Origin: Octopus vulgaris | Taxonomy: Eukaryota | Assembly (NCBI GenBank): GCA_951406725.2 | Contig: OX597820.1 | Span: 120,838,001 to 120,902,000 of the forward strand | Direction: 5' to 3' | Length of the DNA: 64,000 nt | In this document: piece after piece, positions 1,972 through 43,827 of the stretch | Layout of the letters: each line of letters starts with the position of its first letter | Position numbering within the stretch: the stretch's first letter is position 1 | The notes under the pieces: model-generated | The model's database searches: none | Told to the model about the DNA's origin: nothing | What the model saw: the letters and a program-made list of their open reading frames with translations, nothing else | Translations under genes and position numbers: made by a program

Positions 1972-4490
1972 TTGAATTCGCAGTATATAATGATATGACC
2001 TATGAATTGGAGCGAGACTCATGGGGGAAATGAGAGGCTAGCACAAGCGAGAAGCAACCGAGCTGCACAATTCTGGAACTGGTTCAATCTCTCTTTCCCT
2101 CTCAGTGTGTCTTTCTTCTTTCTCTTTCTCTCAGTCTCACCCCTCTCTCTCTCCCTCTCCTTCTCACCATATATCTCTCTCTTTCTATGTTAATCTAGCT
2201 CACCCATAAACAACAGTCGACCAGAAAATTGGTGAATTTGTATGGCGGGAAAACTCGCTCACTTTCTGTGACGTGGCTGCTGAAGCCAGTGATAAATCAT
2301 CCAGTGCTCATTGGTCAAACAAATGATGCTGTTTGTGTCAACCGTGGTCATCTTATGAAAACATATTTAGGTCTTGATTCAAAATACGACAAAATCAGAG
2401 AACTAAGGTATGAATCAAATTCAAACTATGGTTCGAACTTGAATAACTCCCATGCAAATATCCGCTAACGAAACGAAAGTATGCAGTAAATCGAGGAACT
2501 AAGAGCGAACATAATTCCGAGATTTACAGAAAATATAAAGGCAAAAATTCTCACAAGCGTAAGAGAAGATATCACAATATTCACAGAAGTCCAGACAAAA
2601 TGTTCAACATACGCTCAACACTACCTAAGCTTGTTCTTATATTTCATCTTTCATAATGATATGAATATCCGAATATGTTATATGACACTCCATCTAATCT
2701 TCTGTAACCATATAATATTCTTCTCATATTTTCTTTTTGATGGATTCTTCTTTTGGACTGAGAAGCAAAGGTAATAAGTAATTAATTATAATTATAATTT
2801 ATTTAATTTTTCCATGTTTCTTACATGTTGGTGTTGCCATTCGAAACGATCGTATGTATGGATTGAAATTTTATAAAAACTTTTAACATCTTCTCTTCTC
2901 CATGTTTAATTGTTGAGTTTATATACGATACGAGTTCTATAAATGCTCGTAACACACTTTATACTTGTAATATTTTCATATTAATAAATACTTACAATGG
3001 TAAAGCTAACAATTTTAATATGAAGAATCTTTATTAGAGATCAAACTTTGGACGCCACTCCAAAGTAAAAGGATGAAAATGAAATCAACCTTTCTCATAT
3101 ATATATATATATGTGTGTGTGTGTATGTGTGTGTGTGTGTGTGTGTGTGCGTGTGTGTGTGTGTAACTGGCAATCACAGCACAAGCACTTTATGTAGGAA
3201 CTTGGCTAACATAGTCTTCGACTAGAGGCATAAAAGTTACGTATTTTAATTAACCAAAGGAGGATTAATCAATTATTAAGGGACTGTCTCACCAATCTAA
3301 GTGTATATTAAGTGGGTTATTTTACAATCCACGCAGACCATCCACAATTTTAATTTAGGATGCGAGAAGTTAAATAACGGTCACGTACGTTTCGCCATTT
3401 ATTTCATAATAGATGCACTGTTATGCAATAAGATTTCATTTCCTTCTTTAAACAATATAATTTGAATCACTGTCAGCTTGCGGGGCTAATTCCTGAGTTG
3501 ATTATCGTGATTCAAATTGTGTCTGAAGAAATATATCAACCATGAATTTATTGTACAAATTACATAAATTTCTACAATGATGAAATAATGTCGTTCGTTC
3601 CAAAGTGGTACTATATTAGACACATATAGGTACCTTGTCACACACAAACACACATTCTCACCCCTCCATGTGTGTGTGTGTGACGAGGTACTTAGATGAT
3701 TCTACCACTTTGTAATTAATATATATATCTTAAGCCGTTCCCATGAACTTTAAGACTTATTTATTATATCTTTCTTTTTCTGTTTATACCCTAAATGCGG
3801 TTCGTCCTACGCAGGTGGTATGATATAACATATGAAATGTTCAGAAAATAATTACAAATTGTTAATGCATTGAAACGGAATCCAGCTTCAGGACGCTAAT
3901 GACTTCCAAGTACATTAGCTACATTGCTCTTTTGCTAATTAAAACAACACCCATATAGAAACATTTAATACAAGAATGATTATTAAGAGGAAGTTGTAAG
4001 AAAAGAAAATAATAGAACATCTTACGTTTGTTTAATAATAAATGGGTCTTTGAAACATGCACGTTGCGAGGATTGTTCATTAGGTAATTATATCAAGAAT
4101 AAATTTACCTACTCTTTATATTCTCCCATTTTAATTGACTCGTTTTTCCTGTAGTATTTCCATATATATTGAGCAATTTCAATATATATTTTGAGGGGAT
4201 GTTTTTTTTCTAAAAAAAAAAATATTTCTATTCTGTTGGAGGATAACAGAGAACTCTATAAATGAAATCATTATTTAACGATATTACGTCCAAGTAACAG
4301 CGACGCTTACACTTGCATTTAGAGTAATATCGTATATGTGTGGCTAATCCAGCATAAATTATCCATTTATCTAAAACTTTTTGAATATATGTCCGTGTGT
4401 AGATTTACAAATCCATACAGGTACAAACACACGCTCAAACAGAGACACACACGCATGTAAGGGGAGAGGTCAACGGTTTGATAAATATGA

Positions 4491-4721
4491 GACGGCGAGC
4501 TGGCAGAAACGTTATCACGCCGGGCGAAGTGCGTAGCCGTATTTCGTCTGCCGTTACGTTCCCAGTTCAAATTCCGCCGAGGTCGACTTTGCCTTTCATC
4601 CTTCCGGGGTCGATAAATTAAGTACCAGTTACGCACTGGGGTCGATGTAATCGACTTAATACCTATGTCTGTCCTTGTTTGTCCCCTCTATGTTTAGCCC
4701 CTTGTGGGTAATACAGAAATA
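4491..4721 (+). mobile_element. tRNA-derived SINE-A, full length
   Basis: A-box-like tggcagaaacg, B-box agttcaaattcc, core gcctttcatccttccggggtcgataaattaagtaccag; 16-bp TSD ggtttgataaatatga at 4475-4490 and 4722-4737. Confidence 0.9.
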
Positions 4722-5206
4722 GGTTTGATAAATATGAGGCATTCTCTAGAGGTGGTGACAATCTTGATAGAACTGAAATGCTTGTTGTAAGGCATTTGTC
4801 ACACAGATGTTTCTATGTTTTTGAAATAAAACTCAGTGGCCGTTTCCAAGTATGTCTCCATCTGATTTTTGTATTCATTTCGTAATGTGGATGTGTACTA
4901 GGTGAATGCATTTGTTAAAAATGAAAATAGAATATCAAGTTGAAGAATCAACTATAAGTTGAGTTTTAATGCAACACATCTGTTGTGCGAAACATTCGTT
5001 AAAAATAATTACAACTACAAGGGGTTGATCAACTTACAAGAATTACATACGGAAATTTGTGAATAACTTTAGAAATATTCATATTTTTCTTTGTAAATGG
5101 GATGGAATGAGTTAAAATATTATTTGTAGAGTTGATCTCACGTGTGTGTTTATGATATCGACGAACATACATTTAAATATCAGTTGAAAATACGTTCGCG
5201 TATGTC

Positions 5207-5257
<51 letters not shown>

Positions 5258-5423
5258 CATCATCATCATCATCATCGTTTAGCGTCCGCTTTCCATGCTA
5301 GCATGGGTTGGACGGGTCAACTGGGGTCTGTGAAGCTTGAAGGCTTCGTCAGGCCCAGTCAGATCTGGCAGTGTTTCTACGGCTGGATGCCCTTCCTAAC
5401 GCCAACCACTCCGCGAGTGTAGT

Positions 5424-6100
5424 GGGTGTTTTTTACGTGCCACCTGCACAGGTGCCAGACAAAGCTGGCGAACGGCCACGAACGGACGGTGTTTTTACGT
5501 GTCACCAGCACGGGGGCCAGCCGAGGCTGGCAACGGACGCGAACGGATGGTGCTTTTACGTGCCACCGACACGGTTGCCAGACAGAGCTGGCAAACGGCC
5601 ACGAGCGGACGGTGCTTTTACGTGTCACCGGCACGGGGGCCAGCCGAGGCTGGCAACGGACACGAACGGATGGTGCTTTTACGTGCCACCGACACGGGGC
5701 CAGACAGAGCTGGCAAACGGCCACGAACGGATGGTGCTTTTACGTGCCACCGACACGGGGCCAGACAGAGCTGGCAAACGGCCACGAACGGACGGTGCTT
5801 TTACGTGTCACCGACACGGGGCCAGGCGAGGCTGGCAACGAACACGAACGGATGGTGCTTTTACGTGCCACCGACACGGGGCCAGGCAGAGCTGGCAAAC
5901 GGCCACGAGCGAATGGTGCTTTTACGTATCACCGGCACGGGTGCCAGACGAGGCTGGCAACGAACACGAACGGATGGTGCTTTTACGTGCCACCGACACG
6001 GCGGGGCCAGGCAGAGCTGGCAAACGGCCACGAGCGAATGGTGCTTTTACGTATCACCGGCACGGGTGCCAGACGAGGCTGACAGCGGACACGAACGGAT
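5424..6100 (-). repeat. ~61-bp tandem array, 11 units, within the RTE 3' UTR
   Basis: 11 copies of ggtg(c/t)ttttacgt..cacc..cac; two unit types (cagagctggcaaacggcc and cgaggctggcaacg(g/a)ac) mostly alternate. Confidence 0.95.
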
Positions 6101-9350: not shown

Positions 9351-10139
9351 CATGCATATCTTTCATTCAGATATTACGCTTGCTGCGAAATACATTCTAA
9401 CTTATTTTGACAAGACAGTTTCTATTTGTTTCATTCAGTGATATTTTAGAATTGGGATATTCTAGAATTATATTTTTATTCGTATTTGATCAAACCTTTA
9501 TTCGTTAAACGTATATTCTCATCGGTGAGTACAGTATTTTCCCCCAAATAAGATAAAGAGGAAAGGCGAGGGAAAATTTACGATCCACTTATAGATCACT
9601 CGGTCCCATAAACAAATCTTTAGTGAATGTTTATCAGCGTGGATGCAATTTCTTCTATAAATGGAATGCATTTAAGTGAACAGAGAACCAATGCAACCCA
9701 ATGGAGTCAAGTGCCCTTGTAACAGTAACGTTGAACTAAGTCACATCTTTGAAAAATGTTTCTTTAAGGAATACTGAGCCAGATATACTGTGTCGAGGCA
9801 GATTCGTTGATGTAACAACAAGATTAACGATTGATTAAAGCGAAATAGGATTTCTTATTTTGTATTTGACCTCTTATCTTAATTCAAATTCTAACCTGAT
9901 TAAATTTCCAGATGTTGATGGCGATCGGATGAAAGATGAAAACATTGCTATTATACTATATTTTACAGTCCTATATTCAAGAGATGTGGAATTATTTACA
10001 TTATTTACATTTGACGGATATTTGACCTCATCTTGTTCGTTGTTAACACAACGTGTCGGCTGATATACCCTCCAACCTTCATCAGGTGTCTTAGGGAAAT
10101 TTCGAACCTGGGTTCTCATTCCTAAGGTATATTTCGATC

Positions 10140-10392
10140 TCCTTCTTCTTCTTCTTCTTCTTCTTCTTCTTCTTCTTCTTCTTCTTCTTCTTCTTCTTCT
10201 TCTTCTTCTTCTTCTTCTTCTCTTCTTCTTCTTCTTCTTCTTCTTCTTCTTCTTCTTCTTCTTCTTCTTCTTCTTCTTCTTCTTCTTCTTCTTCTTCTTC
10301 TTCTCCTCCTCCTCCTCCTTCTCCTCCTCCTCCTTCTTTTTCTTCTTCTTCTTCGTCTTCTTCTTCTTCTTCGTCTTCTTCTTCTTCTTCGT

Positions 10393-10478
<86 letters not shown>

Positions 10479-10486
10479 CATTATTA

Positions 10487-10570
<84 letters not shown>

Positions 10571-10573
10571 GTA

Positions 10574-10644
<71 letters not shown>
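10140..10644. repeat. Compound (CTT)n/(CCT)n/(ATT)n microsatellite, ~500 bp
   Basis: Direct observation. Confidence 0.97.
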
Positions 10645-10647
<3 letters not shown>

Positions 10648-10777
10648 TTCACTGCCTGGAATCGAACTCGGAATCTTGGGGTTAGTAGCCCGCGCTCTTA
10701 ATCACATGGGGCGTAGTGGTAATAATAACATCGAAATATATCTTAGGAATGAGAACCCAGGTTCGAAATTTCTCCAA

Positions 10778-10823
10778 GACACCTGATGAAGGCTGGAGGG
10801 TATATCAGCCGAAACGTTGTGTT
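10778..10823 (+). ncRNA. Minimal type I hammerhead ribozyme motif
   Basis: gacac-CTGATGA-a-ggctg(gagggtatat)cagcc-GAAAC-GTT-gtgtt; palindromic aacgtt as stem III. Confidence 0.75.
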
Positions 10824-11259
10824 AACAACAAACAAGATGAGGTCAAATATCCGTCAAATGTAAATAATGTAAATAATGTACATAATGTATTCTATATTTT
10901 GTTCTGAAGATCAGTGATACTCTGTTCGTATTCAAGAGTATTTCTTATGCCAGTATACTGTAAAAACAAATATATACTGAGCCGTTACCTTCGCATTTTA
11001 AAGATATAAGAAAGGAATATAGCTGCTATGTCTACCTTGCTCAGGCACCACGAAGGAATTTTATCGCTGCTTCATGACATCGGTGTCGTTTAGAGCCGGG
11101 TCGATCCTTTTTCATCAGATTGAGGATTAATGACACTTTGCAAATATCCGTAGGGTTTTTGTTTTGAAAGGATCGATCGGTGTGAAAAGCGTGATGAAGT
11201 TTATGTAATTCTTCGTTGGTAAATCAAACTCGGTCACATTTCTGTTGTCACTTTTAATG

Positions 11260-41367: not shown

Positions 41368-41999
41368 TATGTATGCATGCATGTGTGTATGTATATATGT
41401 ATATATTTATATTTCTTTATGTATACATATTTTATGCATTTTGCTGACGATATATATAGAAATAGTTCAGAAAGTAGCTTCGATGAATCCTTGAGAAATG
41501 CTCTTTGCAGTCTTTGCTGGTGTTGGATATATCACAGCGGCATCTTCATTGAAATTTTATGTTGTCTTGGTCGTCTAATGATTCAGAATGAAATGGTTTT
41601 AAACAGAAAATGTTTCGAGAAAATTCGGACTGGATTTACCTGTAATTACCTGGTCCACGCATCAGCTACTGCGTCCCGCTGAGTCAGTCACAGAATTGCG
41701 CAAGAGATACCTGCCGATGTGGATTTCTTAGTCATGTACAATGTAATTCGGAGTTTAATTACTGTGGTTAATGGAATATCATTGTGTTGCCGACGGAGAT
41801 CGATATATTTAATTACAGGCACACACAAACCTGAGCTTCATAGACGCACACACGTACACACGTACACACACACGTGTGTGTATGTGAGTATGTGTGTGTA
41901 TAAATGTATATATGTGCATGCATATGTATATATAGAAAAATGGATTATACCTCCTTGTGTATGTATATATATATATTTGTGAGAGTCTGTATATATGTA

Positions 42000-42060
<61 letters not shown>

Positions 42061-42067
42061 GTACATA

Positions 42068-42115
<48 letters not shown>

Positions 42116-42175
42116 CATACATATATATATACATATATACATATATATATGTATATATGTATATATATATATGTA

Positions 42176-42242
<67 letters not shown>

Positions 42243-42642
42243 GTTTATGCATGTACAGAAAGATGCGTGCGTGTGTGTAAGCATTGAAATTACTTTTCTA
42301 TGTAATTAATGCATAGTTGTCATGATAGAATTAGCAAGTTTAATTAGAAATACTAGAAAAGCTCATGCAGCAGTGAAGTTTTCAAACAGCAATAAAACAT
42401 CCAATGATTCAGTTATGTTAATTATCATATAACCTAAATTTTAAAGGTTATGTTCAAGGAACAGTTTTAATTACTAGCAGCGTACTTAACTGGCAACCTG
42501 TTTCGCATCTTTTATGTGCTCAAATACTCTTGGGAATTCCTTCAATACCGCTTGAATTTAAATTACCCCTACCCTGTCACTTTATACGATATATATATAT
42601 ATAAATAGATATACAGAGCAATGAAGAGAGATGGAAGCGTAC

Positions 42643-42679
<37 letters not shown>

Positions 42680-42730
42680 TGCACAACGGAGCACATAGGT
42701 GCAAAACTCAGAATAATATACCATTCTATT

Positions 42731-43400
42731 CATTATTTACATTTTGACGGATATTGCTTTTCATCTTGTTAACTCAACGTTTGGGCCGATATACCCTCCA
42801 GCCTTCATCAGGTGTCTTGGGGAAATTTAAAATCTAGGTGCTTATTCCTAATGTATCTTTCCATGTCGCTGTTGTTGTTATTATTATTATTAAGGTCACT
42901 GCCTATAATCTAACTCGGACTCTTGGGGTTGGTAGCCCGCGCTCTTAACCACTACGCCATATATCCGCGTGCAATTACGAAGTGAATTTTAGGGCTTATA
43001 AATCTAATATTTTCCTATCCTTCCTTATTACCGGTTCCCATATGTTATTCGTCGCTACACTCGGTCTGCTTAGGAGGTTGTTGTTTCCTAGAATATATGC
43101 TACTTCTATTGACGAAAATATCTTCACAAACTGTTATTCAGAGTTCCACGCGACCGTTATCAAACAGCTCATTATTATATTTTACTTACGATTCTGTAAT
43201 AATGTTGGACTATTAACGGTTTCTGGTGGTCGTCATCTATTTGCGACAAATGAGAATATTTAGTTTGGTACACAAGGCTTTTTCTCAACTTGTGATTGGG
43301 AAATTAGATGTGCAAACGGTTTCGGTCTAAATGGATAAATGTGTAATGCAGTCTACACCATACACTTGCAAGAAATGTTGCAACTGTCATTTTACTCCAT
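42731..43400 (-). mobile_element. PLE 3' end: GIY-YIG-like C-terminus, tRNA-like head, (AAT)n, degenerate hammerhead
   Basis: Translation ...IEVAYILGNNNLLSRPSVATNNIWEPVIRKDRKILDL* ends at 42996; tRNA-like at 42894-42960; hammerhead at 42771-42816; upstream limit approximate. Confidence 0.65.
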
Positions 43401-43522: not shown

Positions 43523-43827
43523 TGGAGGCGCAATGGCCTAGTGGTTAGGGCAGCGGACTCGCGGTCGCAGGATCGCGGTTTCGATTCCCAGACCGGGCGT
43601 TGTGAGTGTTTATTGAGCAAAAACACCTAAAAGCTCCACGATGCTTCGGCAGGGATGGTGGTGATCCCTGCTGTACTCTTTCACCACTCTTTCTCTTGCT
43701 CTTTCTTCTGTTGGTCTGCTCGCTTAGCCAGCGGGGTGGCGTCATTCGAAGACTAAAATAATGCGAATGCATTGTGACCAGCGATGTGTAACAACATCTG
43801 ATGGTCTATCGGTCACGTGATCACGTG
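43523..43827 (+). mobile_element. SINE-B, tail type 1
   Basis: TSD ataatgactat at 43510-43520 and 43828-43838. Confidence 0.9.

Follow-up and report, generated by a model that had tools for sequence, protein, structure and literature searches.

Here we present an analysis of a 64,000-nt stretch of the Octopus vulgaris genome (assembly GCA_951406725.2, contig OX597820.1, positions 120,838,001 to 120,902,000; this whole stretch is hereafter the window, and its coordinates are used below) that bears on an abundant Penelope-like element (PLE) with a tRNA-derived module, hereafter the head, in its own 3′ region. The head is likely to be an internal RNA polymerase III (Pol III) promoter that would launch short RNAs extending from the head to the tail of the element, which would be copied in trans by the reverse transcriptase (RT) and endonuclease of the PLE. 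The copy in the window is a 5′-truncated and decayed member of the family, occupying 43110–42731 on the minus strand. It consists, in order, of the end of an open reading frame (ORF), a stop codon, a spacer of about 30 nt, the 73-nt tRNA-derived module, an (AAT)n tract, a hammerhead motif and an (AATGTAAAT)-type end. All of the parts named for this strand in an original prediction, made from the letters alone, are thus present, from the frame, stop and tRNA-like stretch through (aat)n and the hammerhead to the 3′ end.

The ORF remnant (42999–43110, minus strand, as are all parts of this copy) comprises approximately the last 37 codons, a tail that lies beyond the GIY-YIG domain, as identified by homology to longer copies. 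The stop-to-stop frame that contains it (42996–43133, ending ...LLSRPSVATNNIWEPVIRKDRKILDL*) has only 45 codons because the copy is 5′-truncated at around 43110. Family homology begins there, or at 43098 if the motif AATAGAA is a target duplication. The stop codon TAA (42996–42998) is found at the same position in other copies, and is followed by the stop-to-head spacer (42967–42995), the family version of which ends in a palindrome, TGCCCAyGGGCA, that has decayed in this copy. The head (42894–42966), defined by its similarity to real tRNA genes, includes the stretch tggcgtagtggttaagagcgcgggct. Its A box (tggcgtagtgg, 42959–42949) is retained, and a B-box-like stretch at 42915–42905 is decayed (agttagattat versus AGTTCGATTCC in the family). 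An (AAT)n/(AAC)n microsatellite (42869–42893), which varies from 13 to 80 nt among copies, separates the head from the tail. The whole 3′ tail (42731–42868) includes a minimal type-I hammerhead of the PLE type (42771–42816, delimited by alignment to the modal family motif and predicted to be inactive here) and ends ...CCGTCAAAATGTAAATAATG, which is the short 3′-end variant of the family, with its terminus ...aatgtaaataatg at 42731.

The family is abundant, with candidates numbering in the thousands genome-wide. A 400-bp query recurred at 80–85% identity in 39/39 other scored places, taken from 4267 candidates in the 2.8-Gb genome. The original prediction had likened the peptide to the C-termini of GIY-YIG-bearing PLEs, and this proved correct: the 45-aa window peptide aligns to residues 548–578 of P0001, a 582-aa RT-bearing homologue (E 8e-12). 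In longer copies the domains themselves come into view. RVT_1 (PF00078) is present in one of them (L044; E 2.9e-8, 34.1 bits versus a cut-off of 29.6), and in another (L013) the 122-aa C-terminal frame ahead of the stop aligns to the GIY-YIG domain of the homologue P0024 (E 2e-16), which is itself a PF01541 match at residues 505–562. PF00078 is also present in the homologues P0001 and P0005. In total, 130 homologues from many animals were retrieved at E ≤ 1e-5, and of the 120 that were listed, nearly all have PF00078 and 4 have PF01541. From the RVT_1 match, the GIY-YIG alignment, the domains of the homologues and the P0001 alignment, the family is, on sequence grounds, an endonuclease-bearing PLE. 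Pfam searches made directly on the decayed copies gave no GIY-YIG match, and a PDB sequence search gave no match.

Extension of the consensus upstream, as the original prediction proposed, revealed agreement rather than divergence among copies: upstream of the head they match one another further than the window copy reaches, and run into the GIY-YIG and RT regions. The full RT–GIY-YIG ORF expected there was recovered as its two domains but not as an intact frame; no copy examined has an intact full-length ORF, and the longest open frame is of 569 aa with a changed YVDD box. Copies break off at many different upstream points, often head to head with a second copy, which is the pattern of 5′ truncation. 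The numbers of candidates found with C-terminal queries (4457–5860) and with an N-terminal query (426) also fit heavy 5′ truncation.

The head is fixed in this PLE family. It was found in 29/29 copies retrieved with the 400-nt query, some of them with internal deletions, and in 17/17 copies picked by protein alone. A further 14 protein-picked loci include 11 with the head, 2 with part of it and 1 that ends before it. None of the copies examined has the ORF joined to the tail without the head. Several lines of comparison support a tRNA-derived origin for this module. When 77 heads were aligned with 30 real tRNA genes of the genome, the mean best local score was 37.3, compared with 20.3 for shuffled sequences (maximum 30). 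The best match was tRNA-Arg(TCG), colinear over tRNA positions 10–62. Scored against the A-box and B-box consensus sequences, 37/77 heads keep both boxes, and 31 of these 37 have a start-to-start distance of 44 nt between them, as tRNA genes do. The tRNA-derived head that had been predicted inside a PLE therefore stands as a tRNA-related module, between the stop and the minimal hammerhead and in the stretch that forms the pseudo-long terminal repeat (pLTR), but one that neither ARAGORN nor Rfam calls as a tRNA.

The 5′ ends of short, ORF-less units provide the evidence that the head is likely to act as a Pol III promoter. These units were retrieved with a head-and-tail query taken from a PLE-type copy, and the alignments were then extended upstream. 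In this set, which is the best-scoring 40 of 2960 candidates and not a random sample, 28/29 targeted copies have their 5′ end at ori 1628–1652, head +1 being ori 1645, and 1/29 continues into the ORF. With partner copies included, 38/47 end at 1628–1664, 1 is PLE-type and 8 are tail-only. The head and tail thus form a separate unit of approximately 245–280 bp. Solo units begin (T)GGGCATATGGCG, so that their A box falls at +8; the B box lies at +52 from the head start. Target duplications flank three solo units (11 bp and perfect in L073, 11–14 bp in L066 and 10/11 in L062). The short units end as the PLE does, and many are arranged in Penelope-style head-to-head pairs. They therefore have the attributes of a tRNA-derived short interspersed nuclear element (SINE), namely boxes at tRNA spacing, a defined 5′ end, target duplications and a tail in common with an autonomous element. 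By contrast, the pLTRs upstream of full-length copies begin at many different positions, with only about 1–2 of 14 starting at head +1, and so the pile-up belongs to the short-unit class. Summed contig depth in a DNA run, a crude measure, is roughly 13:3:1 for tail, head and ORF end, and a second depth comparison gave a similar picture. In two runs that we guess to be RNA, the depth ratio of head and tail to ORF end is about twice that of DNA, and we give this no weight.

Two further observations concern the junction at the head. Head-to-head short units (L053, L050, L056, L078 and others) meet at a perfect palindrome, GCCATATGCCCATGGGCATATGGC, and PLE-type copies have the half-site TGCCCA just ahead of the head. 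The palindrome may hint at the way in which the head came to join the PLE, or at the way in which the pairs form.

Hammerheads were counted with a hand-written descriptor (heads, by box and similarity tests). It matched the family 48 times in 421 kb, with the modal form GACAC-CUGAUGA-A-GGCUG...CAGCC-GAA-ACGU-U/GUGUU. Helix I has 5/5 pairs in 39/48 matches and helix II (modally GGCUG/CAGCC) in 40/48, and the bulged nucleotide is an A in 48/48. Positions 15.2 and 16.2 are paired, as CG or otherwise, in 33/48; most of the 15 unpaired cases are CA or TG, the products expected from CpG decay of CG. The motif is of type I, with a 4-nt palindrome in place of the absent helix III hairpin, a bulge after A9 and a G10.1–C11.1 pair. 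The minimal, dimer-dependent hammerheads of PLE pLTRs share this bulge, this pair and a palindromic helix III, according to the available text of Cervera and de la Pena (PMC4209133). In its core and helices the family motif is thus a PLE-type minimal hammerhead (min-HHR), for which self-cleavage is predicted. The Rfam hammerhead families gave no match in the window or in other copies, even at E ≤ 10, because the motif has no helix III hairpin. The cleavage site of the hammerhead (ori 1829) was considered as another place where 5′ ends might pile up, and rejected: tail-only pieces start at 1744–1846 and display no sharp peak.

The position of the head becomes clearer in tandem copies. In 14/20 loci retrieved with the N-terminal query, a partial upstream copy ending ...AAATAATGTACATAATTCCTCATCTCTTAAATATAGAAC abuts the full-length 5′ end (TGTATTATCTAATCGG...), which is the pLTR arrangement of PLEs. 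Traced backwards, the main frame stays open across the tail and the hammerhead as far as an in-frame ATG that is situated between (AAT)n and the hammerhead, and the predicted N-terminus of P0005 matches (...TPDDG...PKRCVNN... versus ...TPDEGWRVYQPKRCVNN...). Because the frame is open to that ATG in tandems, the stretch from the stop to the 3′ end serves both as the 3′ region of one copy and as the leader and first codons of the next. The head lies approximately 60–110 nt before the likely ATG in the upstream pLTR and, in the tandem arrangement, upstream of both the ATG and the ribozyme. For the same reason the ribozyme core would fall inside the likely N-terminal coding region (TPDEGWRVYQPKRCVNN), and self-cleavage, if the ribozyme is active, would cut the message past its start codon. 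The open frame is seen in L140–L159 (about locus 1400–1560), in L013 (reverse strand, 1720–1896) and in residues 1–75 of P0005, a homologue of only 53% identity that nevertheless keeps the TPDDG...PKRCVNN stretch. The 'long 3′ end' of some copies, of 31 nt, is the stretch leading into the next unit. Three classes of 3′ end occur, ...AAATAATG, ...ATATAGAAC (+31 nt) and ...TGTATYATC (+40 nt); the longer ends include the start of the next tandem unit, as if the RT could begin within the following unit.

We therefore consider the following sequence of events the probable one. Pol III would start an RNA at the head, at GGGCAUAUGG; this short RNA would be recognized through the common 3′ tail by the PLE enzymes; and it would be inserted by target-primed reverse transcription. 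The short form would then be a SINE partnered by a PLE instead of a long interspersed nuclear element (LINE). The original prediction had the PLE capture a tRNA-derived promoter, and the reverse order can be envisaged, in which a tRNA-headed SINE with a PLE tail came first and was later taken up at the 3′ end of a PLE master, for example by a template switch from SINE RNA to PLE RNA. This scenario concerns origin alone and is compatible with the promoter mechanism. The TGCCCA before the head is the reverse complement of the first bases of the head, TGGGCA, and resembles the inverted stubs seen at SINE-type 5′ ends, as it would if a SINE had been taken up. However, we saw no SINE subfamily that predates the PLE 3′ region or differs from it, and isolated no sister PLE family, either with the head or lacking it; genome searches with the C-termini of two distant homologues, P0005 and P0024, returned the same family only. 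We regard a SINE-first origin as a tentative possibility.

A number of observations weigh against Pol III-driven mobility of the short units. Neither the window nor any of 29 loci yielded a tRNA or a cloverleaf call from ARAGORN, and Rfam (RF00005) had no tRNA match at thresholds of E ≤ 10 and E ≤ 1. Although the head resembles a tRNA and has the boxes, it shows no cloverleaf, and the first base of its B box is A, not G. The sample of short units was chosen by score. Short and long forms follow one consensus, with 1 weak, CpG-type, semi-diagnostic column in 217, and lie at similar distances from the majority (5.6% versus 5.5–7.9%), and so the short form is not established as a lineage of its own. 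A common consensus fits short RNAs made from PLE copies, and it also fits truncation. Tail-only pieces are still more abundant than short units, with a tail depth 3–5 times the head depth, which indicates that plain 5′ truncation makes many short copies. Finally, the 12-nt palindrome TGCCCAyGGGCA stands exactly at the 5′ edge of the head, where inverted pairs meet at CCCATGGG, and a fold-back or truncation hot spot at this palindrome could possibly yield the same pile-up.

The last of these points leads to an explanation that treats the head as a passive passenger, such as an ancient tRNA pseudogene or SINE fragment that became fixed in the 3′ region of the master, and in which the short units are 5′ truncations set mechanically, the palindrome at the head edge permitting a cDNA fold-back or template switch that would also give head-to-head pairs. 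The palindrome and the meeting point of the inverted pairs, the common consensus and similar divergence of the two forms, the frequency of truncation elsewhere (8 tail-only pieces of 47, and the excess of tail depth) and the lack of a called cloverleaf are all as this explanation would have them. However, solo units without an inverted partner start at the same place and have target duplications. They begin at tRNA +1, which sets the A box at +8 and puts the B box at +52; Pol III-driven tRNA-derived SINEs are laid out in this way, and nothing in a mechanical stop would make it respect such a layout. Moreover, an obstacle to the RT would yield copies without the head, not copies that end exactly past it. 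We therefore think it unlikely that the head is a mere passenger.

It is more doubtful still that the head works for the autonomous element, whether in place of a parasite of it or in addition to one. It might do so as a promoter (Pol III acting on a unit free of T runs, or TFIIIC aiding Pol II), as an RNA-end or processing signal, or as a handle for the RT. The head precedes the next ORF in tandems, with the frame open back to the ATG past (AAT)n, and is fixed in all full copies examined. In addition, the majority unit of approximately 2.65 kb (5′ part from L140–L158 and 3′ part from 14 copies) has 0 sense-strand runs of T ≥ 4 versus 35 runs of A ≥ 4. Under dinucleotide-preserving shuffles, however, this depletion, though suggestive, is not significant (2.2 + 0.6 runs, or about 2.8, are expected and none is observed; for the 5′ part, a fraction of 0.076 of the shuffles have no more runs than the majority sequence). 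The scarcity of pLTRs that start at head +1 also means that full-length RNAs do not seem to begin at the head, and kilobase-length Pol III products that are subsequently translated would, to our knowledge, be unprecedented. The boldest form of this idea, that the head is the PLE's own promoter, for Pol III or for Pol II recruited by TFIIIC, reading through (AAU)n, the ATG and the hammerhead into the ~2.65-kb unit and driving both forms, would make the element an autonomous retrotransposon driven by a tRNA-type promoter and generating SINEs of its own from within, and we judge it very improbable.

The octopus family resembles canonical endonuclease-bearing PLEs (Penelope/Poseidon, Neptune) in its heavy 5′ truncation, tandem pLTR, head-to-head insertions and microsatellite neighbours. 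It differs from them in that a tRNA-derived module with A and B boxes lies in the pLTR-forming 3′ region, upstream of the hammerhead. Tails in common with a partner are familiar from tRNA-derived SINEs, which share their 3′ tail with a LINE and which are defined by dependence on LINE partners. The octopus short units are like these SINEs in having an A/B-box head, a 5′ end at about tRNA +1, target duplications and a tail identical to that of an autonomous retroelement. They are unlike them in that the partner is a PLE, not a LINE, whose own 3′ end comprises the entire SINE with its head, and in that the tail also holds a ribozyme. A Repbase classification scheme for SINEs is set out in the accessible part of PMC5753468. 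PLE pLTRs with min-HHRs are known (PMC4209133, PMC8557442 and PMC6765202, in their available text), and a tRNA module of this kind is not mentioned for PLEs in the accessible text of PMC8557442 or PMC4209133.

The closest known relatives of the octopus element are the schistosome Sm-alpha elements and PLE pLTRs. Sm-alpha and Sj-alpha are portrayed, in the available portions of PMC6765202 and PMC8490949 (which cite Ferbeyre et al. 1998 and Laha et al. 2000), as short non-coding retroposons that are abundant and dispersed, said to be transcribed by Pol III, and bear a type-I hammerhead. The likeness to a short hammerhead unit with a putative Pol III head is by description only, and these portions give the schistosome hammerhead as canonical, not minimal, and describe no autonomous partner with the same promoter module in its own 3′ region. 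The non-LTR retrozymes of animals are a second point of comparison, being non-autonomous, hammerhead-bearing, thought to depend on PLEs and related to pLTRs (available text of PMC7761336 and bioRxiv 10.64898/2026.07.22.740005). Retrozymes are portrayed as forming head-to-tail arrays that give rise to circular RNAs, with no promoter module stated in the accessible part of the latter source, whereas the octopus units that we saw are dispersed, solo, in inverted pairs or upstream of a PLE copy, and have a tRNA-like head. A recent repeat annotation for octopus reports SINEs as 11.6% of the genome and an expansion of PLEs, and its accessible text (PMC13282606) mentions no hammerhead and no link between SINEs and PLEs. 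Literature searches turned up neither a tRNA-headed SINE that ends in a PLE tail nor a PLE that contains such a module; subscription journals, Repbase reports and supplements may hold one.

If the promoter mechanism is correct, the SINE partnership would extend to a second class of reverse transcriptase. The 3′ end of the autonomous element is itself a complete short element, and any PLE copy, truncated ones included, could therefore act as a source of short RNAs. This would provide a simple route to the birth of SINEs, and may explain the many dispersed minimal hammerheads in animal genomes. The available text of PMC7761336 and PMC8557442 still describes the function of Penelope hammerheads as unknown. 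With thousands of candidates in a 2.8-Gb genome, the family also bears on the growth of the repeat load of this genome.

The window copy itself diverges by 11.6% from the family majority. Within the window, a 25-nt word from the head has 1 match and a 24-nt word from the hammerhead has 3, each with 0 expected. The hammerhead differs from the modal family motif by 3 substitutions in 51 nt. Its helix I is GACAC/GAGUU, with 1 mismatch, and is followed by CUGAUGA (42811–42805) and then the bulged A; helix II is GGCUG/CGGCC; and the palindromic ACGU (42780–42777) precedes the predicted cleavage site, after the U at 42776. At 42783, however, G12 is replaced by C, giving a core of CAAA instead of GAAA, and 7 nt are absent further along. 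G12 is essential in hammerheads, and the window ribozyme is therefore predicted to be inactive; the hammerhead that had been predicted here is in place as a PLE-type motif but with a mutated core. Together with the decayed B box and a TTTT inside the tail (42832–42829), this substitution marks the copy as dead. Nor is the copy autonomous, with only about 37 codons left. An AATAGAA directly past the 3′ end (42724–42730, minus strand) is repeated at the 5′ junction (43110–43104), and could conceivably be a short target-site duplication or a microhomology.

The ORF-less module at 9970–10885, for which an autonomous PLE had been proposed as the parent, is a head-to-head pair of the same PLE-tail family. 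The left arm (9997–10691, minus strand; 94% and 92% identity) has a greatly expanded microsatellite between its head (10691–10625) and its tail (10135–9997), and lacks the first ~31 nt of a 250-nt reference that starts 4 nt before head +1. The right arm (10703–10884, plus strand; 93% identity) retains only a stub of the head, its first ~14 nt, followed by (TAA)n and a tail whose hammerhead core is intact (10720–10871). The family can thus be called the parent of this module, but the window copy, being truncated, 11.6% diverged and mutated in ribozyme and B box, cannot.

Directly downstream of the window copy lie (TA)n-rich microsatellites, at 42640–42700 and 41800–42300, and several other family copies adjoin (TA)n or (CA)n. 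These neighbours fit the insertion bias of PLEs toward microsatellites reported in the available text of PMC8557442. On the other side, 400 bp from the PLE copy, a different tRNA-derived SINE (ggaggcgcaatggcctagtggttagggc...ggtttcgattccc) occupies 43523–43700 on the plus strand; ARAGORN made no call in it, and in each of the four runs its summed contig depth exceeds that of the PLE tail several-fold.

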